Source of the DNA: Bacteroidales bacterium
GTDB lineage: Bacteria > Bacteroidota > Bacteroidia > Bacteroidales > Prolixibacteraceae
NCBI GenBank assembly: GCA_012729335.1
Contig: JAAYDJ010000038.1
Span: 11,887 to 75,886 of the forward strand
DNA length: 64,000 nt
Direction: 5' to 3'
The position numbers were made by a program, and so were the translations under genes. Numbering within the stretch: position 1 is the stretch's first letter; every line of letters starts with the position of its first letter. Shown piece by piece: positions 4,758-58,992 of the stretch. The notes under the pieces were generated by a model. The model saw only the letters and a list, made by a program, of their open reading frames with translations. It was not told the origin of the DNA and ran no database searches.

Positions 4758-5240
4758 ATGAGAAGTTTAATGAAGGTTATGATTCTGGGGGTGGGATTCC
4801 TCCTGCCTTTCGCCGGAAACGCACAACAGGTGGTGGCCTCCGCAGGCAGCCACGGCACCGGTACCAATGTGCAGCTCTCCTGGACGGTTGGTGAAACGGT
4901 CATCGAAACCTTTACCGGCAGCTCCGCCATCCTGACTCAGGGTTTCCACCAAAGCAAACTGCTGGTTACCGCCCTGGATCCCCTTCTGCTTCCCGGACTT
5001 ACCCTTACCGTTTACCCCAACCCCGTCTCCGAAACCCTCCTGCTCGACTTCCAGGGAGAGATTCCCCAGGGGATATCCTATCACCTCTACGACATCGGGG
5101 GAAAAGTAATCCGCTCGGGCGTGGTGAATCAATTCCCGGGGAAAATAGGAATGGAGCAGTGCACTCCCGGAACTTACCTCCTGAAGGTGCTCAAAAATGA
5201 GCAAACCCCACTGAAAACCTTCCGGATCGTTAAAAACTGA
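4758..5240 (+). CDS. Small secreted protein with T9SS C-terminal sorting domain
   Basis: N-terminal signal peptide (ILGVGFLLPFAGNAQQ). C-terminal LTVYPNPVSETLLLDF...PGTYLLKVLKNEQTPLKTFRIVKN matches the T9SS type A sorting domain pattern. Confidence 0.8.
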   Translation: MRSLMKVMILGVGFLLPFAGNAQQVVASAGSHGTGTNVQLSWTVGETVIETFTGSSAILTQGFHQSKLLVTALDPLLLPGLTLTVYPNPVSETLLLDFQGEIPQGISYHLYDIGGKVIRSGVVNQFPGKIGMEQCTPGTYLLKVLKNEQTPLKTFRIVKN

Positions 5241-9803: not shown

Positions 9804-10550
9804 ATGCTATTACTGGAAGGAAAAACAGCCATTGTGACCGGGGCTTCCCGAGGAATCGGAAAAGCCATCGCCCTGAAGTTTGCCGCCCAGGGGTGCCAGG
9901 TCGCCTTTACCGACCTGTTCAGGGATGAGAATATGATCCAAACCGAGAATGAGCTCCTGGCATTGGGCGTCAAAGCCAAGGGCTATGCCTCGAATGCCGC
10001 CGATTTCGGCGATACCGACCGGGTCGTCGCGGAAATCGTGGCCGACTTCGGCGCCGCCGATATCCTGGTCAACAATGCGGGTATCACCAAAGACACCCTG
10101 CTGATGCGGATGACCGAAGAGCAGTGGGATGCTGTGATCAATGTAAACCTCAAGTCGGTGTTCAACTTCACCAAGGCGGTGCAGAAAACCATGCTTAAAC
10201 AGCGCGCCGGCTCCATCATTAACATGAGTTCCGTGGTAGGGGTCAGCGGTAATGCCGGACAGGCCAACTATTCTGCCTCGAAGGCGGGCATCATCGGATT
10301 TACCAAATCGGTGGCCCGCGAATTGGGCTCCCGCGGTATCCGCTCCAACGCCATCGCACCCGGCTTTATCATCACCGAAATGACGGCGAAAATCCCTGAA
10401 GAGGCCCGTAAAGCCTGGGAAGAATCCATTCCTATGAAAAGAGGGGGTACCCCTGAAGAGGTGGCCAATGTGGCCCTTTTCCTGGCTTCCGACCTCTCTT
10501 CCTATGTCAGCGGACAGGTGCTCAGCGTTTGCGGAGCCATGAAAACCTGA
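9804..10550 (+). CDS. fabG: 3-oxoacyl-[acyl-carrier-protein] reductase
   Basis: SDR motifs TGASRGIGKAIA, NNAG and YSASKAG. 248 aa with end-to-end FabG-like sequence. Confidence 0.9.
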   Translation: MLLLEGKTAIVTGASRGIGKAIALKFAAQGCQVAFTDLFRDENMIQTENELLALGVKAKGYASNAADFGDTDRVVAEIVADFGAADILVNNAGITKDTLLMRMTEEQWDAVINVNLKSVFNFTKAVQKTMLKQRAGSIINMSSVVGVSGNAGQANYSASKAGIIGFTKSVARELGSRGIRSNAIAPGFIITEMTAKIPEEARKAWEESIPMKRGGTPEEVANVALFLASDLSSYVSGQVLSVCGAMKT

Positions 10551-10634
10551 CCCCTGGCCGAAAAAAGCCGGTCACATAGAGAGCCATCCGGAAAAAAAGT
10601 GTAAATTAGGATTAATTTAAATCCTGACTTCCAC

Positions 10635-12536
10635 ATGTCAAACAAGCCGCTGGCATACCGGTTAGGGTTGTATATCTCTGCAGCCGTGCTCTTTGTCTAT
10701 TCCCTGTTCATCATCTGGGCATACCAGTACAATTTCATGCTGGCGGAAAGGGATGCAGCCCATAATGCCAGGGCAATCATCAATGATATTGTAGATGTGG
10801 TCAGGGAAAAGGTGATCTCCACCCAGGAGGTGGCAGCCAACATGGCTGTGCAGTTTCCCTTCTACCACCAGCACGGAGCTACCGGGGAATTCCTGCAGGG
10901 CATCCTTCGGAAGTATCCCCACATCTGGTCCATCAGGATCAGAATGACCCCCTACGGCGATCCCGGGAAGCAGTTTTACCTCATGTCATCACGTGACGAT
11001 ACCACTGCAGCCTTTACCCAGTGCCAGGAATGCCCGGGGGTGTGCATCGATGACAAAATTGCCGCTGAGAACATACTCTCCAAAGGAATACCTTTCTGGT
11101 CGGAACCTTTCCGCTGTGCCCAAAACCAGCTGATCCTCTCCGTATACCGGTTCCCTTTTGTCCATACCAGCGATTCCGGAGATACCCTGCTGACCGGTGT
11201 GGTCGCCTGCCAGGTCTCCCTCGACTTCCTACAGGATCTCATCGAATCTGTCCCCAAAATTGGGGAGGGATTTGCTTTTCTGATCTCCGCCAAAGGCATG
11301 TTCATCACCCACCCCTTTAGAGAATATGAACTGACCCGGTCCATATACCGGCTGCCTAAAGAAATCTATCCCTATGATTCGGCCACCATTGCCCGTGATT
11401 TCGTACAAAACCAACAACCCATCACGGTATTCCCTCATCCATTGGATTATAAGAAATCATGGGCCTATCCAACGCTTATCCCTGAAAACAACTGGATCAT
11501 TGCCTTTGTAATGCCCTATTCCGTGTTCTACAGGGACCTCAATTGGCTTCTTCTGCGTATGATTCTGGTTTCCACAGTAGTCGCCGCGCTGATCTTTTTC
11601 CTGGTCTTTGCCATTTCCAGGAGACTCATGCAACCGATTTCCAAAATCAGCAGGGAGCTCCACAATTTCAGCATCGAAAAACTGGATCTCGGGCCAGGCG
11701 TGAATAATGAAACCGTCATGCTCCAGGAAAGTCTGGTACGCCTCCAGAAACAGTACGAAAGAAACCTTCAGAGCGAAAAAGAACTGAGCCTGCGTCGGGC
11801 ACGCCTCCGGGCCGACATTCAGCTGGCTTCCGAAATCCAGAGAAGCTTCATCCCTCCCGCTGGAAACCACTACCTGCATGATGCCGGCCTCGCCATCCAT
11901 GCCGTGTATAAACCCCTTCTGACTGTCAGCGGCGACCTCTTCGACTTCTTTATGATCAGCGACCATAAAATGCTGGTAACCATTGGCGATGTCTCCGGTG
12001 GAGGTATCCCTGCCGCACTGTTCATGGGTATAGCCCATACCTTTATCAAGAGCAACGCTTTTGCCGGAGATGCCAAAGATATTGTGGATCAGGTAAATAA
12101 ACTGCTGTGTAAAAACAATGCCAACCAGTTCTTCCTCTCCCTTTTTCTGGGAATCCTCGACATGGAAACCGATACCCTCAACTACTGTAATGCCGGGCAT
12201 ACTCCTTCCTTCCTGGTCCACTCTTCAAGACACGTCAGGGAACTGGGCGACCCCCACGGCCTGCCCCTGGGGCTTTTCCCCGACCGTACATACAAAGACA
12301 ACCATACCAGGTTCTCAAAAGGTGACCTGCTGATCATGTATACCGACGGGGTTTCCGAACAGCTCAATGAAAATGGGGAATTCTTCGGCGTAGACAATTT
12401 CTACAAAGTCTTTGATAAAATCAAAAACCAAACCTCGGAAGAGGTGGCCGGTATTCTCCTCGACGAATTAAGCCAATATGCAGGAGAAACCCCCCAGGGC
12501 GACGACCTCTGCCTGCTGGTCCTCAAGTACGAATAG
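10635..12536 (+). CDS. Membrane-anchored sensor with C-terminal SpoIIE/PP2C-type serine phosphatase domain
   Basis: N-terminal TM helix, a periplasmic-looking sensor region of about 270 aa, a second TM helix and a HAMP-like linker. The PP2C region shows GDVSGGGIPAALFMG, YTDGVSE and DDLCLLVLKY. Confidence 0.8.
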   Translation: MSNKPLAYRLGLYISAAVLFVYSLFIIWAYQYNFMLAERDAAHNARAIINDIVDVVREKVISTQEVAANMAVQFPFYHQHGATGEFLQGILRKYPHIWSIRIRMTPYGDPGKQFYLMSSRDDTTAAFTQCQECPGVCIDDKIAAENILSKGIPFWSEPFRCAQNQLILSVYRFPFVHTSDSGDTLLTGVVACQVSLDFLQDLIESVPKIGEGFAFLISAKGMFITHPFREYELTRSIYRLPKEIYPYDSATIARDFVQNQQPITVFPHPLDYKKSWAYPTLIPENNWIIAFVMPYSVFYRDLNWLLLRMILVSTVVAALIFFLVFAISRRLMQPISKISRELHNFSIEKLDLGPGVNNETVMLQESLVRLQKQYERNLQSEKELSLRRARLRADIQLASEIQRSFIPPAGNHYLHDAGLAIHAVYKPLLTVSGDLFDFFMISDHKMLVTIGDVSGGGIPAALFMGIAHTFIKSNAFAGDAKDIVDQVNKLLCKNNANQFFLSLFLGILDMETDTLNYCNAGHTPSFLVHSSRHVRELGDPHGLPLGLFPDRTYKDNHTRFSKGDLLIMYTDGVSEQLNENGEFFGVDNFYKVFDKIKNQTSEEVAGILLDELSQYAGETPQGDDLCLLVLKYE

Positions 12537-36133: not shown

Positions 36134-37171
36134 ATGAAGCAGGCCTTCTATTCATTCATAATTCTTATGGCCATCCTCCTGGGGGGATGCCGCTCTTTTT
36201 CCCTACTCACCATCGACCTTTCTTACCCGCCACGTGAAGGGCTGAACGACTCCATCCAGAGTCTGCTCCTCCTTAACAGGGCCGCAGACCGCCGCTTTAC
36301 CGACGATCACGCCGATACCATTCAGCTCCGGTTCTTCGAGAAGCAGTTTAACCTCGACACCGTGATTTATGATCTCCACGCTTCCGACACCCTGCTTCGA
36401 GTGCTGGGAGACCTCCTTTTTGAATCGGGAAGGTATGACGTCGTCATTCCCGTCGAACGCTTTCCCAAGAGAGATACCCTCAATGTGTACTCCGATCCCA
36501 TGACCTGGGAGGAGGCTGAACAACTGACCTCTCTTTTCAAAACCGACGCCGTGCTCTCCCTCGATTACCACAAAACAGACGTCATGGCCCGTTATCAACG
36601 GCAATCATACATGGATCCGGAAACGGGCGAAGTGGCCGATGTATACGGTGCCGACATGCTGGTGGCCTATATCGCGCAGTTCCGGATCTTTTATCCGGCG
36701 TACCGTGAGGAGATCCCCAGTTTTTTTCTGGTTGACACCCTGATGTGGAGCGATCTGGACTATGATCTCAAGGAGCTTTTCAGGCGGTTTACGTACGTAA
36801 AGCCAGCCCTGGCCGAATCGGGGATTGCCGCGGCCCTGTCGCTTTCCGGAAAGATCGCCCCCCGATGGGTGGCCACCCCCAGGGCTGTTTTCCTTTCAGG
36901 GCATCCCTTACTGCGCAATACAGCTCCCCTGGTCAGGGACCACCGCTGGAACGAAGCCTCCGGAATCTGGGAAGACGCCCTTCCCCGGGCCCGTTCCAAA
37001 TCCCTTCAAAGCAAACTGCTTTTTAATCTGGCCCTGGCCCGCGAAATGGAAGGCAATCTCCAGGAGGCCATCCGCACGGGCATCCGCTCTTATGAAACCC
37101 AGTACCGTAAGGTCACCGAGGCGTACCTGAGGACCCTCGACGAACGCAGAAAGCTCCTTAACCTAAAGTAA
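36134..37171 (+). CDS. Hypothetical lipoprotein (paralogue A)
   Basis: Lipobox LLGGC. The C-terminal TPR-like segment RWNEASGIWEDA...LLFNLALAREMEGNLQEAI is shared with the next gene. Confidence 0.6.
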   Translation: MKQAFYSFIILMAILLGGCRSFSLLTIDLSYPPREGLNDSIQSLLLLNRAADRRFTDDHADTIQLRFFEKQFNLDTVIYDLHASDTLLRVLGDLLFESGRYDVVIPVERFPKRDTLNVYSDPMTWEEAEQLTSLFKTDAVLSLDYHKTDVMARYQRQSYMDPETGEVADVYGADMLVAYIAQFRIFYPAYREEIPSFFLVDTLMWSDLDYDLKELFRRFTYVKPALAESGIAAALSLSGKIAPRWVATPRAVFLSGHPLLRNTAPLVRDHRWNEASGIWEDALPRARSKSLQSKLLFNLALAREMEGNLQEAIRTGIRSYETQYRKVTEAYLRTLDERRKLLNLK

Positions 37172-38214
37172 TGACAATTAGGAAGTTATTGACGAATTTT
37201 TGCCTCCCGTGGCTGGGAGGTATGCTTCTCTGGAGTTCTTGCACCGTTTTTCATACGATGCCCCTGGAGGTGCTTCGCACCGGGGAAGCCCGTCTCCGTC
37301 CTGAAACCGGAAAGGTGGCCTGGCTTTACCGCCATTTCAAATACACGGGGGACACCCTGCAGCATTATTACCGTGACGGGGAGACGCTGCGCAAGGGGAA
37401 GGAGACAGTCACCCTTGACAGCCTCCTGGCGGAGCATTGTCTTACGGCTGCTGCCCGCGCCTTGCAGCAGAATGGGGTGGCCGTGGAATCGGTTTTCTTT
37501 CCGTTTGACATGATGCCCCGGGTGACGGGCGATCAGCTGACGCCCCTGCCGCCTTCACTGGTGCAAAAGATGGCCCGTCCTGCCGGTGCCGACCTGCTGA
37601 TGGTCCTGGAGACTTTCTCCTGGTTTTATTCCCGGTTTCCGGGTGAAAGCCTTTCCCATGACGCCGGGGAGGTGGCTCTGGCCGGGATCTGGGCCATCTA
37701 TGACGGCCACTCGGGGAAAATCACCGAAACCCGCTCTATGGTGGACACCCTATATTGGACGGGCGATCACGGCGCCTCCGGTGGGGAAGCCCTAAAACTC
37801 CCCCCGCGCCTCCCGGCGCTCGAAATGGCAGCCGCCACCTTCGGAGAAAATTATGCCCGCCGCTTTTATCCCGGATGGATGACCGTTGACAGGCTCCTGG
37901 TGATCCCTCCGACGGAAGAATTCCGGCAGGCCGCCGAATATGCCGTCAACCAGGAATGGGACAAAGCCACTGCCATCTGGCAGCGCTACAGCGCCGACCG
38001 CTTCGGACGAATGGCTGTATCGGCACGCTATAACCTGGCACTGGCCGCCGAAACCCAGGACCAGCTCGATAACGCCCTCCACTGGATCACACGCGCCGAT
38101 GATCTCGCACGCCTCTACCGCAATAAGAAGGAGACCACCATGACCGGCCAATACCGGCAAATCCTGGAATCACGCCTTCAGGAAATCAGAAAAATGGAAT
38201 CCTGGGAGAAATAA
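37171..38214 (+). CDS. Hypothetical lipoprotein (paralogue B)
   Basis: Lipobox LLWSSC. The C-terminal segment EWDKATAIWQRY...ARYNLALAAETQDQLDNAL parallels paralogue A. The start overlaps the previous stop (TAATG). Confidence 0.6.
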   Translation: MTIRKLLTNFCLPWLGGMLLWSSCTVFHTMPLEVLRTGEARLRPETGKVAWLYRHFKYTGDTLQHYYRDGETLRKGKETVTLDSLLAEHCLTAAARALQQNGVAVESVFFPFDMMPRVTGDQLTPLPPSLVQKMARPAGADLLMVLETFSWFYSRFPGESLSHDAGEVALAGIWAIYDGHSGKITETRSMVDTLYWTGDHGASGGEALKLPPRLPALEMAAATFGENYARRFYPGWMTVDRLLVIPPTEEFRQAAEYAVNQEWDKATAIWQRYSADRFGRMAVSARYNLALAAETQDQLDNALHWITRADDLARLYRNKKETTMTGQYRQILESRLQEIRKMESWEK

Positions 38215-50306: not shown

Positions 50307-50879
50307 TCAGCAACCGCAACCCGATCCGCAGCCCGAACCACAGCCGTCGCTGTCGTCGCCGCCGCAACATCCCGAACTGCAACCTCCGCCGCAGCCTCCC
50401 GAGAAAGCTTCCACCACCTCCTGATCGGTGGCTTCCCTGACTTCCACCACCTGCCCACGGAAGAAAAGATCCTCCCCGGCCAGAGGATGGTTAAAATCCA
50501 TCCGCACACTGGCGTCATTCACCTCCAGAACAATGCCGTTCAACCGCTGACCGTCACCGCTCATCATGGGTATGGAATTCCCGACCTTCACAAAATCGGG
50601 ATCAAAACTCCCGTTTACCAGAAAAATATCTTTGGGCAAATCCACAATGGCATCCTCATTGACCGCACCATAGGCGTCAAGATGATTCAGCTTTATCTCA
50701 AATCCATCGCCGGTCGTGAGACCCGACAATCCCTCCTCAAATTTGGGCAGCATCATACCCGCCCCGTACAGGAACTTCAACGGACGTTCGGCAGTGGCCT
50801 GCTCTATCATTTCTCCTTCATGATCATCGATCATCAGATCATAAGTGACCGTGACCATTTTATTTTTTGCTACTTCCAT
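50307..50879 (-). CDS. slyD: FKBP-type peptidyl-prolyl isomerase SlyD with Cys/Gly-rich C-terminal tail
   Basis: MEVAKNKMVTVTYDLMIDD..., the IF-domain insert, and FNHPLAGEDLFF. The tail is GGCGGGCSSGCCGGDDSDGCGSGCGSGCGC. Confidence 0.85.
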   Translation of the reverse strand: MEVAKNKMVTVTYDLMIDDHEGEMIEQATAERPLKFLYGAGMMLPKFEEGLSGLTTGDGFEIKLNHLDAYGAVNEDAIVDLPKDIFLVNGSFDPDFVKVGNSIPMMSGDGQRLNGIVLEVNDASVRMDFNHPLAGEDLFFRGQVVEVREATDQEVVEAFSGGCGGGCSSGCCGGDDSDGCGSGCGSGCGC

Positions 50880-51074
50880 TCTTTTTTTATTTATCCATGC
50901 AATATAAACCATCTTTTTTCCCGGAGTATTCTCCGTGCTACGCACTGATTTCATTGATAACGCAGATTTAACAATCGTTTGCATTAAATCGGGCGATATT
51001 TTTAAAGAGTGGCGCCAAACGGCTCATTCAGGCCGGAATAGATGGGAGACGGACAGTAAATTATATGACAAATA

Positions 51075-52055
51075 TCATCGTTTTCCCACCCGGACCATTT
51101 TGATCAGGTGATGGTTTTCGCCCAGGGTATAACGAAGTATGGCGACGCCTGGGGAGAGGTCTGCCGCAGGGGTGACAAGGGTTTTGTTTCCGATGGAAGT
51201 GGTGCGCACGGGTATAGAGCGGCCAGAGGCTTCCGTCAGGGTCACCGCTTTGGGGCGTTCTCCAGAATTACCGGGATGGTCAATGTAAAAATGGGTGGTG
51301 AAGGGATTGGGATAGATGGCGGGCACATCGGACTTCCGGGGAATGTGAAGGGCCACCTGCCGGTCGTTGATCTGGTCGAGGCAGAAATAGCCCGGGGTGT
51401 TCATGCCGTATGGTCCTGTGTCGGAGGATTCGAGGGCGAACCGCAGATGGGCCACCTCACCCAGGGAAGTCAGGTCCACCCATTTCCACTCCTTCAGGAT
51501 AAAGTCTTCCCGGGAGTCTTCCGCGCGGAAATCGGCCAGGTAAAAAAGAATGGTGCCCGTGGTGTCGCCTCCGGCACCAATGCCGGTGATCCTGACCCTG
51601 AAATAGTCGGGATCCGTCCCCGTCGACCCCCCGAATTTTTTGGCATAGGCATCGCCATCGCGCATGGACAGGTATGCATACGTAGTGTTGGTCAGATGCA
51701 TGCCCTCAAAACGAAGGGGCTGTTCAGGGGTGATCCTGATGTTTCCAAAGTCAAAGGCCACGGCGAAATTGCCCGAACCGCCATACCCTCCTCCGGCTAT
51801 GGAACTATACTGGTTGGCGAAACCCCGCGTAAGGGTATCCTTATGGTTGGTACAGGCAAAACCGTTCCAGCTGCTCCACTCGGCATTGTAACTGTTGTGG
51901 AAGGTCATTCCACCGCTGCGGAAAAAACCACTCTGATCGGAACCGTTCCACACCCCCGATGCGGGAAGGATCACATCCTCAAAATGAACGGGAGACTGAG
52001 CCAACAGGCTGCTGCTCACCATCACAAGTAACATTGAAAAGTAAAATCTAATCAT
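51075..52055 (-). CDS. DUF4465-like secreted protein with T9SS C-terminal sorting domain
   Basis: Signal peptide present. WNGSDQSGFF...WSSWNGFACTNHKD...NQYSSIAGGGYGGSGNFAV...FYLADFR...GMNTPGYFCLD matches my recollection of DUF4465. The C-terminal IYPNPFTTHFYID...ILRYTLGENHHLIKMVRVGKR is a T9SS CTD. Confidence 0.7.
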   Translation of the reverse strand: MIRFYFSMLLVMVSSSLLAQSPVHFEDVILPASGVWNGSDQSGFFRSGGMTFHNSYNAEWSSWNGFACTNHKDTLTRGFANQYSSIAGGGYGGSGNFAVAFDFGNIRITPEQPLRFEGMHLTNTTYAYLSMRDGDAYAKKFGGSTGTDPDYFRVRITGIGAGGDTTGTILFYLADFRAEDSREDFILKEWKWVDLTSLGEVAHLRFALESSDTGPYGMNTPGYFCLDQINDRQVALHIPRKSDVPAIYPNPFTTHFYIDHPGNSGERPKAVTLTEASGRSIPVRTTSIGNKTLVTPAADLSPGVAILRYTLGENHHLIKMVRVGKR

Positions 52056-52115
52056 TTCTCAATTATTTAAATTAAACATGAATGCGTTCGTTCTGAAATG
52101 AAGGTCAGTCTGAAA

Positions 52116-53267
52116 TCAACGAAACAGGAAATCCCCGGGGTTGATACCTACCCTGAAGCTGTCGGCAGGGGTTCCTCCGGGCGAGAAGCGGTAAACCATG
52201 CCGTTCTGGGCATAGTCGATGGCATCGGCCAGGTAGATTTCCCCTGTGCGGGGGTCGATACCGGCGTTATAATAGGTCCGGTGGCCACCGCGGATATGCG
52301 GCAATAAGGGGAATTTCCTGTCGAGGACCGACATTTTATAGAGGTCGCCGGCCAGGATATAGAGGGAGTCGCCCGCGGGTGAGAGATGGAGGTCACCGGG
52401 TTTATCACTGCCGGCGTTCCAGCGAAAGATCTGCTCCACGGTGCGTGTGGTGGGGTCAATGCGCACCAATGCGGGTTCCTCAGCTCCTCCTTCTGCGCCG
52501 CCATAACTGCCCCCGGTGAGCACCCACAGGCGCGAACGGCCGTCGGCGACGATTCGCCCCGGCTGGGCCGGTACCGTCAGCGAATCCACGACAGTGGCCG
52601 TCACCGCATCCAATACCATTACTTTATTGTCGTAAGACCAACAGGTCACAAAAATGTCGTTTCCCACATGGGCAAACTGCTCGGTAGGATGGCCGGCTGC
52701 TCCTGCAGGCCCCCCGGGTAAGGGAATAAATCCCTTCTTCCTGAGGCTGCCGGGATGAAACACAGTGATCCCACCGGCATGCAGATCGCTGACCCATAGC
52801 GTTGTATCGTCAACCTGATGAAGGTACCGTGGCGAGGTGAGGCCCGTCACGGCTCCCTTGAAAGCCAGGCTCTCCGGATCCAGGGCCACCACCTTTCCTG
52901 AATTATTGACCACGATAAAAAGGCTCTTACCATCGCAGAATAGCGATTGGGGAACATCCCCCAGGGGGGCATGGTTCCGGGCGAAGAAGAGCTGATTGTA
53001 TACCTCTCCCTTCTCGCGGTCGTAAAATGACAGCGATCCGTTGCCATACATGTAGTTGCCCTCACAGGATATGAAAACGCCGCTGGCCCCTTCCAGGGAA
53101 CGGTAGACCACCTCTACGGGAAGCTCTTCGCACCCCGGGAGAAGTATTCCCGGCAGACAAGGGACCAGTAACCACAGAGCGGCCTTGAAGAGTCTGCGCA
53201 GGTCCCTTTTCCCGGAAGGAAACCACCCTTTTCGGCACATAGTTGTTATATAGCTGCAGTCATTCAT
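52116..53267 (-). CDS. Beta-propeller surface lipoprotein (YncE/DUF5074-like)
   Basis: Possible lipobox ILLPGC. Repeated propeller blades (LFIVVNNSGKVVALD, LWVSDLHAGGITVF, IFVTCWSYDNKVMVLD, LWVLTGG, LYILAGDLYKM, IYLADAIDY). ATG 53267 overlaps the receptor stop (ATGA). Alternative start 53240. Confidence 0.7.
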   Translation of the reverse strand: MNDCSYITTMCRKGWFPSGKRDLRRLFKAALWLLVPCLPGILLPGCEELPVEVVYRSLEGASGVFISCEGNYMYGNGSLSFYDREKGEVYNQLFFARNHAPLGDVPQSLFCDGKSLFIVVNNSGKVVALDPESLAFKGAVTGLTSPRYLHQVDDTTLWVSDLHAGGITVFHPGSLRKKGFIPLPGGPAGAAGHPTEQFAHVGNDIFVTCWSYDNKVMVLDAVTATVVDSLTVPAQPGRIVADGRSRLWVLTGGSYGGAEGGAEEPALVRIDPTTRTVEQIFRWNAGSDKPGDLHLSPAGDSLYILAGDLYKMSVLDRKFPLLPHIRGGHRTYYNAGIDPRTGEIYLADAIDYAQNGMVYRFSPGGTPADSFRVGINPGDFLFR

Positions 53268-55456
53268 GGTTTCAAGGCTGCTGAAAGGGTAACCGAATAA
53301 TGGCGGCCCGGCATGGGGCGCCAAAGGATTTGCTGGTAGCGCACACCGGCAATATTTTCAACTTTTACTTTCACTCCGAAATGGTGATGTGCAGTATCAA
53401 AATGTTTTATCAACGAAAGGTCAAGCAACCAAAAGGGGTTGAGGCGGCTTTCGAACCAGCTCCATTCGTTGGAGGAGCGGGTGTATCGCCGGCCGGTGTA
53501 ACCCAGGTCAGACTGTAGGCTCCACCCCTGGCGGGAGAGCGTGCCATGGAGGTTACCCGCATGCAGCGGTATATAAATAAGCTGTTTTCCGCGCGATTGA
53601 TCGACCGAGCTGACCGCATTCTGGTTGGTCGTGCGAGTCAGGGCATAATTACCTGAAAGAATGAAGTTCCAGGGTTCGTAATTCAAGGAAAAGGTGAAGT
53701 CATATTCCACGCCGCGGGAAAGGACATCTCTCAGGTTGGAGGCTTCCCAATACCAGGCGCCGTTGGCCGCCGGCTGCCAGATGATCCAGTTATGGATATC
53801 GGAAAGGAAGAAGGAGGCTTCGTGCCGGAAGGCCCACTTCTTCCGGTGGTAGGCCGATGCCCAGGAGAGCTCTCCGGAGAGGCCTTTTTCAGGTTGAAGG
53901 TCGGGGTTGCCTCCGGGAATCCAATACAGGTCGTTCATGGAAGGTTTGTGGAAGTTGCCGCTGAGGTTGGCTTTCAGCCAGGCCTGCCGGCGGGGAGTCA
54001 CCTGCCATTCGGCTCCCAACGCGGGAATAACGGGAATCCAACGATGGTCATAGATCTCTGAACGGGTGAGCACAAAAAAACCGGTTCGGGGGGTGGGCTT
54101 GTACCATACATGCACTAAAAGTCCCACTTCATTTCTGGCTTTCCGGTACCCCTCATCCCGTGCCTGATTGGAAGCCTCCACCTGGTGCCGGGTGGCGTCC
54201 AGGCTCCCCGAGAGGGTGAGCCCTGATGCCAATTCCCGGGTGATATTCAAGCTGTTGTGCCAGCTCAACTCCTGGTTATGGGCATCATCGATGACCCAAC
54301 CGGTATCCATGGCCTTGCGGAAGTAGCGCATGACCGACCCGTTAAGGCCACTGCGGAAGGTCAGTCGGGTCCCCGGCCCATACCGCTTCAACTCCAACTG
54401 GAGCCGCCACTGGTTATCTATCTGATTTTCCTCTCTTTCTCCCCCCTCGTATGACATCAACTGGGGCAGGTCGCGTTCTCCCTGCTGGAACCAGCCCCGC
54501 AGGGCGGCCGTCATCTCCCCCGGGGTGCGAAGGTAGATTTCCTGCAGGAGGCCGCTACGGTGGTAGCCCCCATTGCGGAGGGTGTCCTTTCTGAAGGGGA
54601 TGACGCCGACATTGTAAAAGGGGAAATCGTTATGGGAGGCGTCGTAGAAGAGTCGGGTGACCGACTGCCAGCGGAAGGCCGGCGTCGCGGGCTCCGGGAC
54701 AGGAGCGTTTGCGGGGGTCATGGCGGAATCCCTGGTGGCGGCAGGGATAACGGAAGATTCTGAGGTAGCAGGGGTGGCATGGTCTGCAGAAGATCCGGAG
54801 GAGGCAGGCGTGGCATGGTCTGCAAAAGATCCGGAGGTGGCAGGGGTGGCATGGTCTGCGAAAGATCCGGAGGTGGCAGGGGTGGTATGGTTCGCGGAGG
54901 AGCGGGTTGCAGGCCGGGAGCCTGTTCTGAGTCCGGCCATGAGTCGCCACGAGCCGAAGGAGCCTCTTTCGGTGATGGCGGTCAACTGCGAGGTCTCCTC
55001 CCATTGGGGTTTGTTCTCAAGGTGAATGGCTCCTCCCAGTGCACCGGAGCCCTCGCTCAGGGAGCTGCCGCCATGCAGGAGGGTCACCTCGTCGGTGAAG
55101 AATACAGGCAGCAGCGAAAGGTCGGCGATCCCGGCCATGGGGCTGTTCAGGGTCATGCCGTTCCAGAGGATCTGGGTATGGGAGGCCGCTGTGCCGCGGA
55201 AACTGGCCGTCGCCTGGGAACCGCGGCCGTAACTTTTTATGAAGACCGGGGAGTGAAGGGCCAGCAGGTCGGCCAGGGAAGTGGTCAGCCGGGCGGCCAT
55301 GGCCAGGCTGTCGGGGCGCGAAACCTTCATGCCGGTCTCCCCGGAGCGCCGACGCCCGAAAACCTCCACCTCCGCGATATGCAGGGTATCCCCCAGCGTC
55401 TGGGCAGGAAGAAGTTCAGGCAGCCACAACAGACTCAAAAGCAACCAAAACCTCAT
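53264..55456 (-). CDS. btuB: TonB-dependent receptor, BtuB-like by context
   Basis: Signal peptide. Plug domain (VEVFGRR..., SFRGTAASHTQILWNGMTLNSP). The 22-strand-type barrel ends YSVTLSAALKP. It is under a cobalamin riboswitch. The ATG overlaps the upstream gene's stop (ATGA). Confidence 0.8.
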   Translation of the reverse strand: MRFWLLLSLLWLPELLPAQTLGDTLHIAEVEVFGRRRSGETGMKVSRPDSLAMAARLTTSLADLLALHSPVFIKSYGRGSQATASFRGTAASHTQILWNGMTLNSPMAGIADLSLLPVFFTDEVTLLHGGSSLSEGSGALGGAIHLENKPQWEETSQLTAITERGSFGSWRLMAGLRTGSRPATRSSANHTTPATSGSFADHATPATSGSFADHATPASSGSSADHATPATSESSVIPAATRDSAMTPANAPVPEPATPAFRWQSVTRLFYDASHNDFPFYNVGVIPFRKDTLRNGGYHRSGLLQEIYLRTPGEMTAALRGWFQQGERDLPQLMSYEGGEREENQIDNQWRLQLELKRYGPGTRLTFRSGLNGSVMRYFRKAMDTGWVIDDAHNQELSWHNSLNITRELASGLTLSGSLDATRHQVEASNQARDEGYRKARNEVGLLVHVWYKPTPRTGFFVLTRSEIYDHRWIPVIPALGAEWQVTPRRQAWLKANLSGNFHKPSMNDLYWIPGGNPDLQPEKGLSGELSWASAYHRKKWAFRHEASFFLSDIHNWIIWQPAANGAWYWEASNLRDVLSRGVEYDFTFSLNYEPWNFILSGNYALTRTTNQNAVSSVDQSRGKQLIYIPLHAGNLHGTLSRQGWSLQSDLGYTGRRYTRSSNEWSWFESRLNPFWLLDLSLIKHFDTAHHHFGVKVKVENIAGVRYQQILWRPMPGRHYSVTLSAALKP
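54768..54911. repeat. 36-bp in-frame tandem repeat (4 copies) inside the TonB-dependent receptor gene
   Basis: Units at 54768-54803, 54804-54839, 54840-54875 and 54876-54911 (degenerate). They encode ADHATPATSGSF-type repeats. Confidence 0.9.
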
Positions 55457-57828
55457 TTCTTCACGAGTTTTGTCCGCAGAAAACTCTGGGTTCCCAGGAC
55501 TTCTACCACATAGGTTCCCGCAGGCAGATCCCCTGCCGGAACCAGGGTCTCAGGGCCTTCGCAAATCTGTTCCCGCAGGGTCCTCCCCCACAGATCACAA
55601 ACCCTCACCCTGCAGGGTTCTCCCGTCCGGGAGTGCACCCGGAAAGCCGAAGGGAACGGATTGGGCCAGACCCGCAAAACCTCAGAAGAGGTGATTTCTG
55701 CCGGGGTAACGGCGGCCGGTGTGATGAGCACCGCATTCAATCCCGACCAGAGCACAAGCGGCGGCATGGTGGGGACCACCACCCGGGTTTTCCCCTGCAG
55801 ATCGGTGAAGGCCACGCTTTTTCCCAGCTCCCTGAAGGCTACCGCCTGATTGGAAAGTGCCCTCCGCTCGCCTTCCGAAATCTCTCCCGAGGCTTCAGAC
55901 ACACATCTTACTTCTGTGGCCGTGACCTCCAGTTCGTCTCCCGTTTTGGCTACTGAAGGCATTGAATTGAGAATAGACAACCACCATTCCTCCTGAATAT
56001 TATCGACATGGTACAAGATAAGGGTGTCGCCATCCGCGACATTCCGGAGGTGCCAGTTGTCCAAATAATGGGAGTTATTTTTGCGGAAGATCCAGGCGCG
56101 GGCGAAAGGCAGAGGATCTATTTTGCCGCCCCATCCGTAGGTAAAGAGGCCCTCCTTTTCGACGGAATAGAGGTAGAGTCCCTGTGCGTTGTCGGGTTCT
56201 TCCCGGAAAAGGAAAGGGGTTCCGGCGCGGGTAAGGATAGCGGAGGCGGCCTGTGCCAGGGTAATGAAAGCCGGCTGGCTGTAATCGCCCTTCCGGTTTT
56301 CCACGTGGTCGTTGACAGAATGGGCGGGGATGGTGATCCACTGGGCAGGGAAAAGGTTCTCATCGGAGGATTGGGCCGAGGCAAAGACTCTGACGGCCGC
56401 AGGGGCTTTTGTCACCGACAGGGTGAAGGAGCGGCTGAAGCCGGCAAAACGGGCTGAAGTGAGGAGCAGGCTTGTCTCCCCGGGTACCAGGGGGGTCAGC
56501 TCAAAGCCTTCCCCAGCGGGGTTCACGGCCGCCACCCCGGGATCCTCCACGGTGACCCGCCAGGCGGTACCTGTGATTTCGTCTCCGAATTGGTCAAGGA
56601 GTTCTGGATAGAAAAGACATTTTTCACCAGCGGTCAGCTGGGGATTAAAATCCCGGAGGTGCAGGTCACGGGGTTCCCTGACGGTAACCAGGGTACGGGC
56701 TACACAGGAGGCTGTCACCGCAGGCCGGGCTTCCACGGTGATCTCTCCCCCCCGGAGGGCCCGAAAGAGACCCCCGGGGGTCACCCATCCCTCTCCGGAA
56801 CCCTCTGCCACCGTAAAAGAGACCTCCTCCGGGGAAATCCTTCCCCGCACAAAATGGGCGGCATAAAGAAAGAGGCTGTCGCCCTGCAGCAATGCCTCCC
56901 GGTGGGGATGGATCACCGTCACCTGGTCGGGACCGCTCTTCCCTGTGGGGGCAGTGGCCACCACCCCGCCAATCTCGGGACTGATTTCCCCCAGGAGGGA
57001 GGTCACTGCCAGTACGCCGGTCACCACCCTGATAAAATCGATCTGGTCCAGGTCCACATATTTTCCCTCCGGGTCAATGGCCCAGGAGATGTCGAAGGGG
57101 TCTCCTCCGGCTCCTTCCATGATATCCGGGGTATAGGGGTTGTCGGGGTCGGTGAGGTCACCGGTGCGGTTCCAGGCGCGGTTGTCGGCATAGCCGAAGC
57201 CTGCGGAGGGAATCCTGATCAGACCGTGTGATTCTGATGGCATTAAGGGAATAAGTGTCCCCTCGAGGGTCACCGAATCAATGGGGTAATCCGGGAAGAT
57301 CTCAGGCTGCGGATAATATGGCTGGCTATGGAAGCTGTTCTGCCGGAGGAGTCCCGAGGAGAGTCCGTCGCTCCAACGCACCGATCCATCGCCGAGAGGC
57401 GCCCAGGTGATCCGGTAGCCACGTATCACTTCCGGATGAAAGGAGGAACTCCCCGCCAGTTCATACCAGGTATCGTCGGGAAGTCCATTGCCGTTGCTGT
57501 CTTTCATGACCCACACCACACCGGGCTCCGAAGATCCGTCGAAGGCATTCCCGTAGAGGGTAAAATCGATGCCGTAGGGATTCCGGGGATCATTGACCAC
57601 CGGTTTTTCAAAACCTAAAATGAGAGATCCGCCAAAGGAACCCAGGGAGACCAGATGGCCGTCACCAGTGGTGATGCGCTGCGCGGCTTCAGGGGTACCC
57701 AGAAGGTCGTTGTTGATGAATTGGCCGGGCGCCGGGTGATAACCCAAAACCCTGACCGCCCTGTTCTGTGGCACCGCCTGAAAATGACAGATCCACAAGA
57801 ACGCTACTAAAGACAATACTTTTTTCAT
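55453..57828 (-). CDS. Large uncharacterised surface protein with T9SS C-terminal sorting domain; first gene of the riboswitch-controlled operon
   Basis: Signal peptide MKKVLSLVAFLWICHFQA. The central region looks like Ig-like (Big_2-type) beta domains. C-terminal VWPNPFPSAFRV...GTYVVEVLGTQSFLRTKLVKK is a T9SS CTD. Confidence 0.75.
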   Translation of the reverse strand: MKKVLSLVAFLWICHFQAVPQNRAVRVLGYHPAPGQFINNDLLGTPEAAQRITTGDGHLVSLGSFGGSLILGFEKPVVNDPRNPYGIDFTLYGNAFDGSSEPGVVWVMKDSNGNGLPDDTWYELAGSSSFHPEVIRGYRITWAPLGDGSVRWSDGLSSGLLRQNSFHSQPYYPQPEIFPDYPIDSVTLEGTLIPLMPSESHGLIRIPSAGFGYADNRAWNRTGDLTDPDNPYTPDIMEGAGGDPFDISWAIDPEGKYVDLDQIDFIRVVTGVLAVTSLLGEISPEIGGVVATAPTGKSGPDQVTVIHPHREALLQGDSLFLYAAHFVRGRISPEEVSFTVAEGSGEGWVTPGGLFRALRGGEITVEARPAVTASCVARTLVTVREPRDLHLRDFNPQLTAGEKCLFYPELLDQFGDEITGTAWRVTVEDPGVAAVNPAGEGFELTPLVPGETSLLLTSARFAGFSRSFTLSVTKAPAAVRVFASAQSSDENLFPAQWITIPAHSVNDHVENRKGDYSQPAFITLAQAASAILTRAGTPFLFREEPDNAQGLYLYSVEKEGLFTYGWGGKIDPLPFARAWIFRKNNSHYLDNWHLRNVADGDTLILYHVDNIQEEWWLSILNSMPSVAKTGDELEVTATEVRCVSEASGEISEGERRALSNQAVAFRELGKSVAFTDLQGKTRVVVPTMPPLVLWSGLNAVLITPAAVTPAEITSSEVLRVWPNPFPSAFRVHSRTGEPCRVRVCDLWGRTLREQICEGPETLVPAGDLPAGTYVVEVLGTQSFLRTKLVKK

Positions 57829-57911
57829 TCCCCTTTTGTTAAGGCACAAGTCGGGGAAATAAAACGCAGGCTGGATAACCTTCGCTTTTATTCCCGAAAG
57901 CATAATTACAA

Positions 57912-58046
57912 AACGGCAGGTCTTCTGGCTTACCCCGGCTCTCTGCGCCTTCCCGCTCCGGTGGCCCGGAACAGTGGCATCATGCAGCGCCTTAAGGGGA
58001 TTACAGCTGCGGGTACAGCTCCGGATTCACACCGGATTCCCTATTA
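57912..58046 (-). promoter_or_regulatory. Cobalamin (B12) riboswitch aptamer
   Basis: The minus strand reads aauagGGAAUCCGGUGUGAAUCCGGAGCUGUACCCGCAGCUGUAA...GCCACUG...GUAAGCCAGAAGACCUGCCG. This matches the conserved core and B12 box of the cobalamin riboswitch. An expression-platform hairpin follows at about 57853-57896 (gggaauaaaagc / gcguuuuauuuccc). Confidence 0.9.
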
Positions 58047-58076
58047 CTCATCAATGAAATGAACCAGTTTCTGAGG

Positions 58077-58084
58077 CAAAGGTA
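58077..58084 (-). promoter_or_regulatory. TAnnTTTG -7 promoter element upstream of the riboswitch
   Basis: The minus strand reads tacctttg, about 31 nt upstream of the aptamer 5' end. Confidence 0.45.
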
Positions 58085-58131
58085 ACACTAACCCCTGAGC
58101 TTCCCAAACAATGGCAGCCCCTGATCGAAAA

Positions 58132-58212: not shown

Positions 58213-58992
58213 ATGAAAACAATATGGATGCTCACCCTGACCATGCTGGCACTTGGGGCAGCCGGTCAGAACTGGGACGACCAGCGGTCGGCCCTGGAAC
58301 GGAAAATGAACAAGCTCACGGGCAGCGAAGCCATGGTGGCCCCCTCCTATTACCAGGACGCCTCCGTACAGCTCACCCGCTACTCCCACTCCCGGATTGC
58401 CACCATCCAGACATTCGACAACCGCTATGAGGGTACCAAGGGGAGCCCTTACCTCAGTGAGGAGTGGCTCAAAGGCGCCGTGATGGTCTCCGGCGTAGAG
58501 GAACCCCAGGTAGCCCTTCTGAACTACGACTGCCTCAACGACGAGCTCCTGGTCAGATTGGCCGACGGCAATCCCGCCGCCCTCCCCCATGAAAATGTGG
58601 CCTCCTTCCTCCTCTATGATGAACAGAGCCCTGACAAATACCGGTATTTCGTGCCCATCACCCCCCAAAAGGGAGATCCCTATTTCTGCGAAGTGCTATA
58701 CAGCGGGCGCAACATCCTGCTGGTCCACCCCCGGAAAACCTTCAGGAAAGCCGACTACCAGCGGGCCTACAGTCCCGACCGGAAATACGACGAGTACCTC
58801 GATGAAAGCGTTTATTACCTGAAGAGCGAAAACGGAAAGGATTTTGCCAAACTCCGGCTTCAAAAGAAACAGGTCCTGGAGGCGCTTCCCCTTCACCGGC
58901 AAGCCCTGGAGCAATTTGCGGCTGACCGCAACCTGAAGCTGAATACCCCCGGGGAAGTGGTGCAGTTGCTGGCCTGGTACGACTCGTTATAA
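58213..58992 (+). CDS. Hypothetical secreted protein
   Basis: Signal peptide MKTIWMLTLTMLALGAAGQ. 259 aa. No family recognised. Confidence 0.55.
   Translation: MKTIWMLTLTMLALGAAGQNWDDQRSALERKMNKLTGSEAMVAPSYYQDASVQLTRYSHSRIATIQTFDNRYEGTKGSPYLSEEWLKGAVMVSGVEEPQVALLNYDCLNDELLVRLADGNPAALPHENVASFLLYDEQSPDKYRYFVPITPQKGDPYFCEVLYSGRNILLVHPRKTFRKADYQRAYSPDRKYDEYLDESVYYLKSENGKDFAKLRLQKKQVLEALPLHRQALEQFAADRNLKLNTPGEVVQLLAWYDSL

Follow-up and report, generated by a model that had tools for sequence, protein, structure and literature searches.

Predicted type IX secretion cargo in an outer-membrane locus downstream of a cobalamin riboswitch in a Prolixibacteraceae bacterium

How might a bacterium keep its vitamin B12-capturing proteins outside the cell if they carry no lipid anchor? 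This question is raised by a locus found in a 64,000-nucleotide stretch of DNA from a Bacteroidales bacterium of the family Prolixibacteraceae (assembly GCA_012729335.1, contig JAAYDJ010000038.1, positions 11,887 to 75,886; hereafter the window). Between positions 51,075 and 58,084, on the minus strand, four genes follow a cobalamin riboswitch. A sequence-only reading of this DNA had proposed that the capture layer encoded here is attached through type IX secretion instead of lipidation. Its interpretation is supported, as every element of it that can be tested in silico held up. The locus is quite probably a self-contained operon for corrinoid capture and import at the outer membrane, repressed by cobalamin through its riboswitch, with its binders mounted on the type IX secretion system (T9SS). 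The proposal has to be narrowed in one respect. The capture layer is, as far as its sequences tell, a hybrid: the BtuH-like and BtuJ-like proteins have no lipobox and carry sorting domains, while BtuG keeps its lipobox.

The four open reading frames (ORFs) downstream of the riboswitch are co-directional, as had been noted. Gene 1 (55453..57828, minus strand, as are the others) encodes a 791-aa secreted multidomain protein with a BtuH domain and a T9SS type A sorting domain. Gene 2 (53264..55456) encodes a 730-aa Bacteroides-type BtuB, a TonB-dependent transporter. Gene 3 (52116..53267) encodes the BtuG lipoprotein, a seven-bladed propeller of 383 aa when counted from the ATGA-overlapping ATG, and gene 4 (51075..52055) a 326-aa BtuJ-family (DUF4465) protein. 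Both ATGA overlaps described from the sequence can be read directly: the start of gene 2 overlaps the stop of gene 1 at 55453-55456 (...AAG AAA TGA / ATG AGG), and genes 2 and 3 are joined in the same manner at 53264-53267 (...CCA TGA / ATG AAT). Genes 3 and 4 are 60 bases apart. Upstream of all four, the RF00174 model matches positions 57898-58083 (-) significantly and over its full length (1-189), with 114.3 bits (gathering threshold 31.5) and an E-value of 6.7e-28. It is the sole Rfam family detected across the window, and a custom covariance model gives the aptamer 163 bits. The aptamer first placed at 57912-58046 lies inside this match, and the core, the GCCACUG and the B12 box quoted for it are all present in the sequence. 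The B12 box, AAGCCAGAAGACCTGCC at 57915-57931, is invariant across 26 aligned relatives.

The first protein had been given 816 residues and, apart from its sorting domain, no family; both points change. The ATG that opens the 816-aa ORF lies within the conserved expression platform. Since this upstream ATG is absent in some orthologues, and since GGGGAATGAAAAAA, which marks the start at ATG 57828, is invariant in the orthologous leaders, gene 1 starts at 57828 and encodes 791 residues. Public gene calls for a 97%-identical relative show the same over-extension (window 57828-57903 (-); L084, 10001), and database entries for homologues may likewise be 25 residues too long. The protein begins with a signal peptide, followed by a BtuH-type domain (aa 26-286, nt 56971-57753), two immunoglobulin (Ig)-like domains (aa ~300-475, nt 56404-56931), a transcobalamin-beta-like domain (aa 476-625, nt 55954-56403), a further Ig-like domain (aa 626-715), and the T9SS type A sorting domain (aa 716-791, nt 55456-55683). 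Searched against Pfam, protein 1 returns no family even at an E-value of 10, except for a weak sorting domain. Pfam offers no model for the BtuH domain, and only comparison with PDB sequences revealed it. Residues 26-286 match, with an E-value of 1.9e-37, the domain by which BtuH2 binds B12 (7biz_A, chain residues 223-485), as well as the BtuH-like C-terminal extension of BtuG1 (8blw_B, E 3.6e-30). The same two structures come first when the model of protein 1 (14 homologues, mean predicted local distance difference test [pLDDT] 76.8) is submitted to Foldseek, with 8blw_B at 8e-14 and 7biz at 1.6e-12. Five of the eight BtuH2 contacts are kept, Q333, N399, F401, H476 and L578 corresponding to Q36, N94, F96, H167 and L279 in protein 1 (contact list from PMC8941943; chain numbering anchored on Q233, N299 and F301). 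Among them are the residues on the phosphate side, which have been reported as the conserved portion of the pocket, and B12 binding has been demonstrated experimentally for this family (PMC8941943). On this sequence evidence, protein 1 is a member of the BtuH-like B12-binding family. It departs from the lipoprotein layout of BtuH, as the binding domain is N-terminal, Ig-like and sorting domains come after it, and the signal peptide has no conserved cysteine.

The other three proteins belong to families already associated with B12. The TonB-dependent receptor recognised earlier is a BtuB: protein 2 matches BtuB2/BtuB3 of Bacteroides thetaiotaomicron with E-values of 4e-80 (8p98_A/8p97_A) and 2e-77 (8bmx_C), and its Plug domain (PF07715) scores 48.8 bits. 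It stays below the equivalogs for the Escherichia coli type of BtuB, TIGR01779 and NF007926 (83.2 against 599.7 and 56.8 against 836 bits, respectively), and is assigned on these scores to the Bacteroidota branch of BtuB, not to the enterobacterial one. Within btuB, a 36-nt unit is repeated 3.8 times with 90% matches (54754-54891, -) and encodes (ATPATSGSFADH)n, adding about 70 low-complexity residues between plug and barrel (aa ~190-262). All related loci align around this repeat; BtuB has 651 aa, with no repeat, in a 59%-identical relative and 730 aa in the 97%-identical one. The beta-propeller lipoprotein is BtuG. Protein 3 aligns with the solved BtuG 8p97_B over 338 residues (E 6.6e-76) and scores 59.2 bits with PF16819 (cut-off 27.2). 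Its lipobox LLPGC is followed by an acidic EELPVE, both read in the sequence, and the alignment starts at the lipobox cysteine, which matches that of 8p97_B; protein 3 is thus a BtuG lipoprotein. The DUF4465 assignment of protein 4 also stands, with 192.4 bits for PF14717 (cut-off 25) and 9hmu_A as the best PDB match (E 5.4e-28). This protein consists of a signal peptide (...LLAQ/S), the DUF4465 domain (aa 59-229, nt 51369-51881) and a T9SS type A sorting domain (aa 247-326, nt 51078-51317). It keeps the NTPxY of the HI loop (as NTPGYF), the YAY motif, and the tyrosine of the DE loop/helix. B12 binding has been demonstrated for BtuJ1 and BtuJ2 of B. thetaiotaomicron and for six distant members of the family, the binding fold being a jellyroll in which an NTPxY loop is conserved (PMC13398666; bioRxiv 10.1101/2025.07.01.662609). 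The protein F2I9N3 of Fluviicola taffensis is also reported to bind B12 (PMC13398666). The leader of protein 4, MIRFYFSMLLVMVSSSLLAQ/S, contains no cysteine, its AQ is invariant in relatives, and it does not have the surface-lipoprotein signature of BtuJ1 and BtuJ2.

What, then, would take the place of the lipid? The leaders of proteins 1 and 4 are of the signal peptidase I type, finish in ...AQ and lack a lipobox cysteine. At their C-termini, both proteins have what are most convincingly seen as sorting domains when their relatives are considered. Of the 120 best homologues taken for each protein, 116 for protein 1 and 111 for protein 4 carry PF18962, many of them annotated as T9SS type A sorting domain proteins (Mariniphaga, Maribellus, Tangfeifania, Prolixibacteraceae), and PF18962 also matches nine of ten single-domain relatives of protein 4. 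The C-termini are colinear across relatives down to about 30% identity, with PNP and G-x-Y motifs. A profile built solely from seven C-termini of this lineage finds solved T9SS sorting domains, namely 5jvk (E 1e-11), 8glk_D (6e-5) and 8glj_D (5e-4), both of them cargo domains, and mirolase (8qb1, 3e-3). In its PDB entry, 8glj_D is labelled a Por secretion system sorting domain. A custom sorting-domain hidden Markov model recognises the two window proteins with E-values of 6e-13 and 3e-8. In the model of protein 1, a seven-stranded C-terminal sandwich is predicted at aa 718-790, with block-mean pLDDT values of 74-89 over aa 711-791. Taken together, these data support the presence of T9SS type A sorting domains at the ends of proteins 1 and 4, despite sub-threshold scores in the window proteins themselves. 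Elsewhere in the window (4758-5240, +), a third protein, a very small candidate T9SS cargo of 160 aa, has only about 60 residues between its signal peptide and its sorting domain. It scores 35 bits with PF18962, above the cut-off, which argues indirectly that the organism uses the T9SS.

The arrangement recurs well beyond this contig. A scan of one genome per species yielded at least 600 pattern matches, of which at least 579 were confirmed as relatives by tblastn, and the best 80 loci were examined. As a regular expression for the aptamer was too strict and missed distant loci, a covariance model built from 26 riboswitches was used instead; Rfam reproduced all eight of the riboswitches that were spot-checked. 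A cobalamin riboswitch lies upstream on the same strand in 77 of the 80 loci, and in 58 of them it is no more than 400 nt away from the gene for the protein 1 homologue. The homologue of protein 1 ends in a sorting domain in 70 of the 80; the ten exceptions include the Firmicute and several loci that are at contig ends or interrupted in frame. Next come BtuB, in 72 loci, and BtuG, in 65, and DUF4465 genes are found in 27, with a sorting domain in 24 of these. The 80 loci come mostly from Prolixibacteraceae and other metagenome-assembled genomes (MAGs) labelled Bacteroidales, and also from Dawidia, Fulvivirga, a Chlorobiota MAG and one Firmicute. An exact-sequence search with protein 4 gave no match. 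Closest to the window are a Logan contig (SRR21606536; 97% identity) and a MAG (GCA_964567485.1; 59% identity), in which the flanking genes are the same; in this lineage the operon is kept between ligA and FKBP/aroC. As had been stated, no transporter of the btuFCD type accompanies the operon: no ABC ATPase signature is seen in any ORF of the window, and such a signature occurs within 10 kb in only five of 84 related loci, never inside the operon.

Some of these loci show variations on the theme. In those of the Prolixibacteraceae type, a second cobalamin riboswitch lies between btuG and the next gene (L006 9330-9519, L009 15369-15580, L011 15362-15550, L021 15295-15486, and others). The product of that gene, 634-643 aa long, has DUF4465 twice in tandem, then a spacer and a T9SS sorting domain, and the two-riboswitch layout recalls operon 1 of B. 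thetaiotaomicron. In loci L053 to L079 (e.g., L059 9323-11035 and L065 3511-5277), the BtuH-domain protein with a sorting domain is short, with 445-490 aa, and is often preceded by a DUF4465 sorting-domain gene, in front of which the riboswitch is then found. The Firmicute locus (L057, Clostridiales bacterium SIT11 / Ndiopella massiliensis) encodes at 10001-11245 a BtuH-domain homologue with 39% identity over 396 residues and no sorting domain. It has weak cobalamin-riboswitch-like matches elsewhere in the locus, and it fits an earlier report of BtuH homologues in a few Firmicutes.

The leader of gene 1 contains blocks that are more conserved than the protein it precedes. The promoter element that had been proposed at 58077-58084 (-), at the 5' edge of the aptamer, reads TACCTTTG and has the form of the Bacteroidota -7 box, TAnnTTTG; a TTTG lies 20 nt upstream of it, at 58105-58108. 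Of 56 related loci, 50 have TAnnTTTG at this same place, compared with a background of 3% of random 65-nt windows, which makes it a conserved promoter element and no chance match. A conserved -33 TTG was sought upstream of the -7 box and seen in only six of the 50 loci, so the promoter claim is restricted to the -7 box. Directly 3' of the aptamer, the expression-platform hairpin GCUUU-CGGGAAU-AAAGC (P13-like; 57884-57901, -), which had also been noticed before, is predicted by RNAalifold and does not vary in any of the 16 orthologous leaders. The CGGG of its loop has its complement in an invariant CCCG of the aptamer loop GCUGUACCCGCAGC, and to judge from this complementarity the hairpin probably docks on the aptamer through a CGGG:CCCG kissing loop. 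A loop-loop contact of the same geometry is familiar from other cobalamin riboswitches. Further downstream (57822-57864, -), a predicted helix would sequester the start codon: UUUUAUUUCCCC (57853-57864) pairs with GGGGAAUGAAAA (57822-57833), which includes the AUG at 57826-57828. This helix of ten pairs is essentially invariant in the RNAalifold consensus and is also found in the minimum free energy fold of the single sequence. In the 16 leaders, the hairpin, UUUUAUUUCCCC, and GGGGAAUGAAAA with its start codon form three invariant blocks, although the proteins are only 35-60% identical. The middle of the leader holds a variable hairpin, the stem of which is seemingly kept with differing sequences; these were left uncounted, as the alignment register shifts. 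A full anti-sequestor ON state pairing CGGGAAUAAAA with UUUUAUUUCCCCG was also considered and is not asserted, as suboptimal folds within 6 kcal/mol never displaced the CCCC:GGGG helix.

Several observations weigh against an operon that works in this way. With TIGR04183 (cut-off 23), the C-termini of proteins 1 and 4 score 21.0 and 18.0 bits, and with PF18962 (cut-off 27) 15.3 and 19.3 bits; the sorting domains are therefore present but not "clear", as they had been called. Protein 4 has GVA in place of the usual G-x-Y, and its terminal K-x-x-K region is degenerate. No T9SS machinery gene was recognised in the 64-kb window. The BtuH2 corrin contacts Y510, W511 and W577 correspond to L, I and L in protein 1, in a low-confidence region of the model. 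The sub-threshold scores would suit C-terminal segments that are decayed remnants, with proteins 1 and 4 acting as periplasmic shuttles like BtuF, and non-lipoprotein DUF4465 members have indeed been said to carry periplasmic targeting signals in the DUF4465 paper. This explanation is nonetheless very improbable, as the segment is retained with its motifs at such low identities, finds solved sorting domains with a profile drawn from the lineage alone, and in protein 1 is predicted to fold with pLDDT values of 74-89. A second possibility accepts the same operon and the same export and differs in where the cargo ends up: the two proteins would be released into the medium or onto vesicles as soluble "corrinophores" that return B12 to BtuG-BtuB. 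Some type A cargo is released and not anchored in other organisms, and anchored and released type A cargo cannot be separated by sequence. In B. thetaiotaomicron, BtuH2 is found in the supernatant as well as in membrane fractions and BtuJ acts on extracellular vesicles; in protein 4 there is almost no spacer between binding domain and sorting domain. Release deserves to be taken seriously but is less likely than a tether. In protein 1, the BtuH domain is the part farthest from the sorting domain, with about 430 residues of Ig-like and other modules between them, a spacing that mirrors the stalk of lipid-anchored BtuH2 and that a surface tether would need. The order is reversed with respect to BtuH2, with the anchor end C-terminal and the binding domain N-terminal, which supports a tether. 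A released high-affinity binder would also need a docking partner, and none is evident.

The switching mechanism is open to a comparable objection, namely that the riboswitch acts chiefly on transcription, by premature termination, Rho or mRNA decay, and not by hiding the start codon. The variable-sequence hairpin of the leader is followed by UUUUAUUU, as would suit termination. Thermodynamic folding reproduces no clean ligand-free ON state: the two best alternative folds have -24.5 and -23.0 kcal/mol, and the CCCC:GGGG helix is in both. RNAalifold found no covariation in the expression platform of the 16 leaders with which to test the switching model, because the key blocks are invariant. These points, too, count against our model. 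However, no intrinsic terminator is predicted between aptamer and start codon (57800-57900, -), and the U-run of the leader is itself within the conserved pairing to the start-codon region. A September 2026 review, moreover, reports translational repression for a btu riboswitch of B. thetaiotaomicron. Control at the level of transcription is hence rather unlikely. The lack of a predicted terminator, together with invariant blocks that pair around the AUG, leads us to favour translational repression of gene 1, which would be passed on to BtuB and BtuG by the ATGA couplings.

The preferred model of an operon repressed in translation, with surface-displayed binders, can be proposed as follows. 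Transcription would start just downstream of the TAnnTTTG box. When intracellular cobalamin is high, it would be bound by the aptamer, and the conserved hairpin would dock through CGGG:CCCG. UUUUAUUUCCCC would then pair with GGGGAAUGAAAA, burying the start codon of gene 1. Since genes 1 to 3 are joined by ATGA overlaps, shutting off the translation of gene 1 should lower BtuB and BtuG as well. When cobalamin is low, all four proteins would be made. Proteins 1 and 4 would cross the inner membrane by Sec and the outer membrane by the T9SS, after which the sorting domain would be removed and the proteins would most likely be linked to the cell surface by their new C-terminus. There they would bind corrinoids and hand them over for import to BtuG-BtuB, BtuB being the TonB-dependent gate and BtuG the surface lipoprotein capping it. 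A comparable capture and delivery of corrinoids has been proposed for BtuJ, BtuH and BtuG of B. thetaiotaomicron (PMC13616437).

The central domain of protein 1 (aa 476-625) adds a lead, not a result. Modelled alone, it reaches a pLDDT of 80 and a predicted template modelling score of 0.81. Foldseek searches of the PDB return a best E-value of 3e-3 and probabilities of 0.87-1.0, and the top 16 matches are all either the beta domain of transcobalamin/haptocorrin or the DUF4430 protein 3u7z. TM-scores are 0.52-0.60 on three isolated-domain targets (5np4, 5no0 and 3u7z). The Pfam family DUF4430 (PF14478) matches weakly, with an E-value of 0.024 and in two of 14 family members, and a profile search of the domain against PDB sequences was empty. 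The predicted fold thus corresponds best to the beta domain (DUF4430) of mammalian transcobalamin, haptocorrin and intrinsic factor, but the sequence similarity to these proteins is marginal, and protein 1 has no alpha domain. A bolder idea can be put forward tentatively, with the balance leaning slightly against it: in a large part of the environmental Bacteroidota (Prolixibacteraceae, other Marinilabiliales-like groups and some Cytophagales), B12 acquisition would depend on the T9SS, and its main cargo would be a two-headed binder, BtuH plus transcobalamin-beta-like, an extracellular bacterial counterpart of the B12 carrier fold of animals. If this is true, T9SS mutants of these organisms should be starved of B12 at low cobalamin.

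The operon is followed by genes for an FKBP, a chorismate synthase, a DUF134 protein and a hydrolase. The first of these (50307-50984, -) is an FKBP/SlyD-like gene whose product has a cysteine-rich tail, CCGGDDSDGCGSGCGSGCGC. On the same strand as the DUF4465 gene, it begins 90 nt after that gene; neither a promoter box nor a terminator is obvious in the gap, and the FKBP gene keeps its position in both close relatives (L081 and L084). It might be co-transcribed with the B12 operon. On the other side, pointing away from the riboswitch promoter, is the gene for a 259-aa secreted protein with no Pfam match (58213-58992, +); the 97% relative has it too, and a 51-aa ORF is found instead in the 59% relative. 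Further away (36134-38214, +) are two tandem paralogous DUF6340 proteins of 345 and 347 aa, at least the first of which has a lipoprotein-like leader (…LLGGC).

How much of this is new? The riboswitch and all four protein families are already known, and the architecture is common in databases, where it is auto-annotated. Three features are new with respect to the literature searched: T9SS sorting domains on binders of the BtuH and BtuJ types, a multidomain protein 1 of inverted order with its possible transcobalamin-like module, and the compact, unlinked operon restricted to the outer membrane. The arrangement does appear to be uncharacterised, as had been suspected: in the literature searched on B12 uptake and the T9SS, up to the September 2026 review, no T9SS link and no B12-related T9SS cargo is described. 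The BtuH paper (PMC8941943), both BtuJ/DUF4465 papers (PMC13398666; bioRxiv 10.1101/2025.07.01.662609) and that review speak of lipoproteins or "periplasmic targeting signals" and make no mention of the T9SS.

B12 is a traded, limiting cofactor in the sediments, soils and marine particles where these bacteria live, and the current model of a "lipoprotein-assisted relay" in Bacteroidota is built wholly on gut Bacteroides. The locus described here and its numerous relatives indicate that the same binding modules have been transferred to another system of surface display, and that their domain order was turned around to fit an anchor at the C-terminus. Vitamin acquisition would thus be a new candidate role for the T9SS in physiology, and a possible bacterial transcobalamin-like module is indicated. 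A functional label can be offered for hundreds of proteins named only "T9SS type A sorting domain-containing protein," and the roughly 30% of DUF4465 proteins filed as "periplasmic" in the literature could be reinterpreted. Experiments should be feasible, since the carriers Mariniphaga anaerophila DSM 26910, Maribellus maritimus, Tangfeifania diversioriginum DSM 27063 and Dawidia cretensis are in culture.

Comparison with known systems shows what is shared and what is different. Btu loci 1-3 of B. thetaiotaomicron are likewise controlled by cobalamin riboswitches and encode a homologous BtuB (E 4e-80) and BtuG (7e-76), the latter a lipoprotein with an acidic stretch after its cysteine, together with the same two accessory B12-binding folds, BtuH and DUF4465. 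In that organism, however, BtuH and BtuJ are lipidated at their N-termini, whereas here the lipobox is missing and T9SS sorting domains are found instead; to our knowledge, gut Bacteroides have no T9SS. BtuH2 runs from an N-terminal anchor through an Ig-like stalk to a C-terminal binding domain, and protein 1 reverses this order exactly and adds the predicted transcobalamin-beta-like domain. Neither btuFCD nor BtuK nor BtuL is linked to the present locus, whose four genes form one compact, translationally coupled unit. The btuB gene of E. coli is also preceded by an aptamer and, after it, a regulatory hairpin, with control exerted at the ribosome-binding region of a TonB-dependent B12 receptor. 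There the first regulated gene is btuB, while here it is that of a capture protein, and three extra surface proteins are encoded. Known T9SS type A cargo includes the gingipains and HBP35 of Porphyromonas gingivalis (haem acquisition), the KLIKK proteases of Tannerella forsythia, and cargo of Flavobacterium johnsoniae. Such proteins generally have, as do those described here, a Sec signal, functional domains, and a C-terminal beta-sandwich of about 75 residues with PNP and G-x-Y motifs. Gingipains and HBP35 serve nutrient acquisition at the surface, and the same is proposed for proteins 1 and 4. In contrast with known cargo, these two carry predicted vitamin-binding modules, would be under riboswitch control, and are encoded in an operon with their own TonB-dependent transporter.

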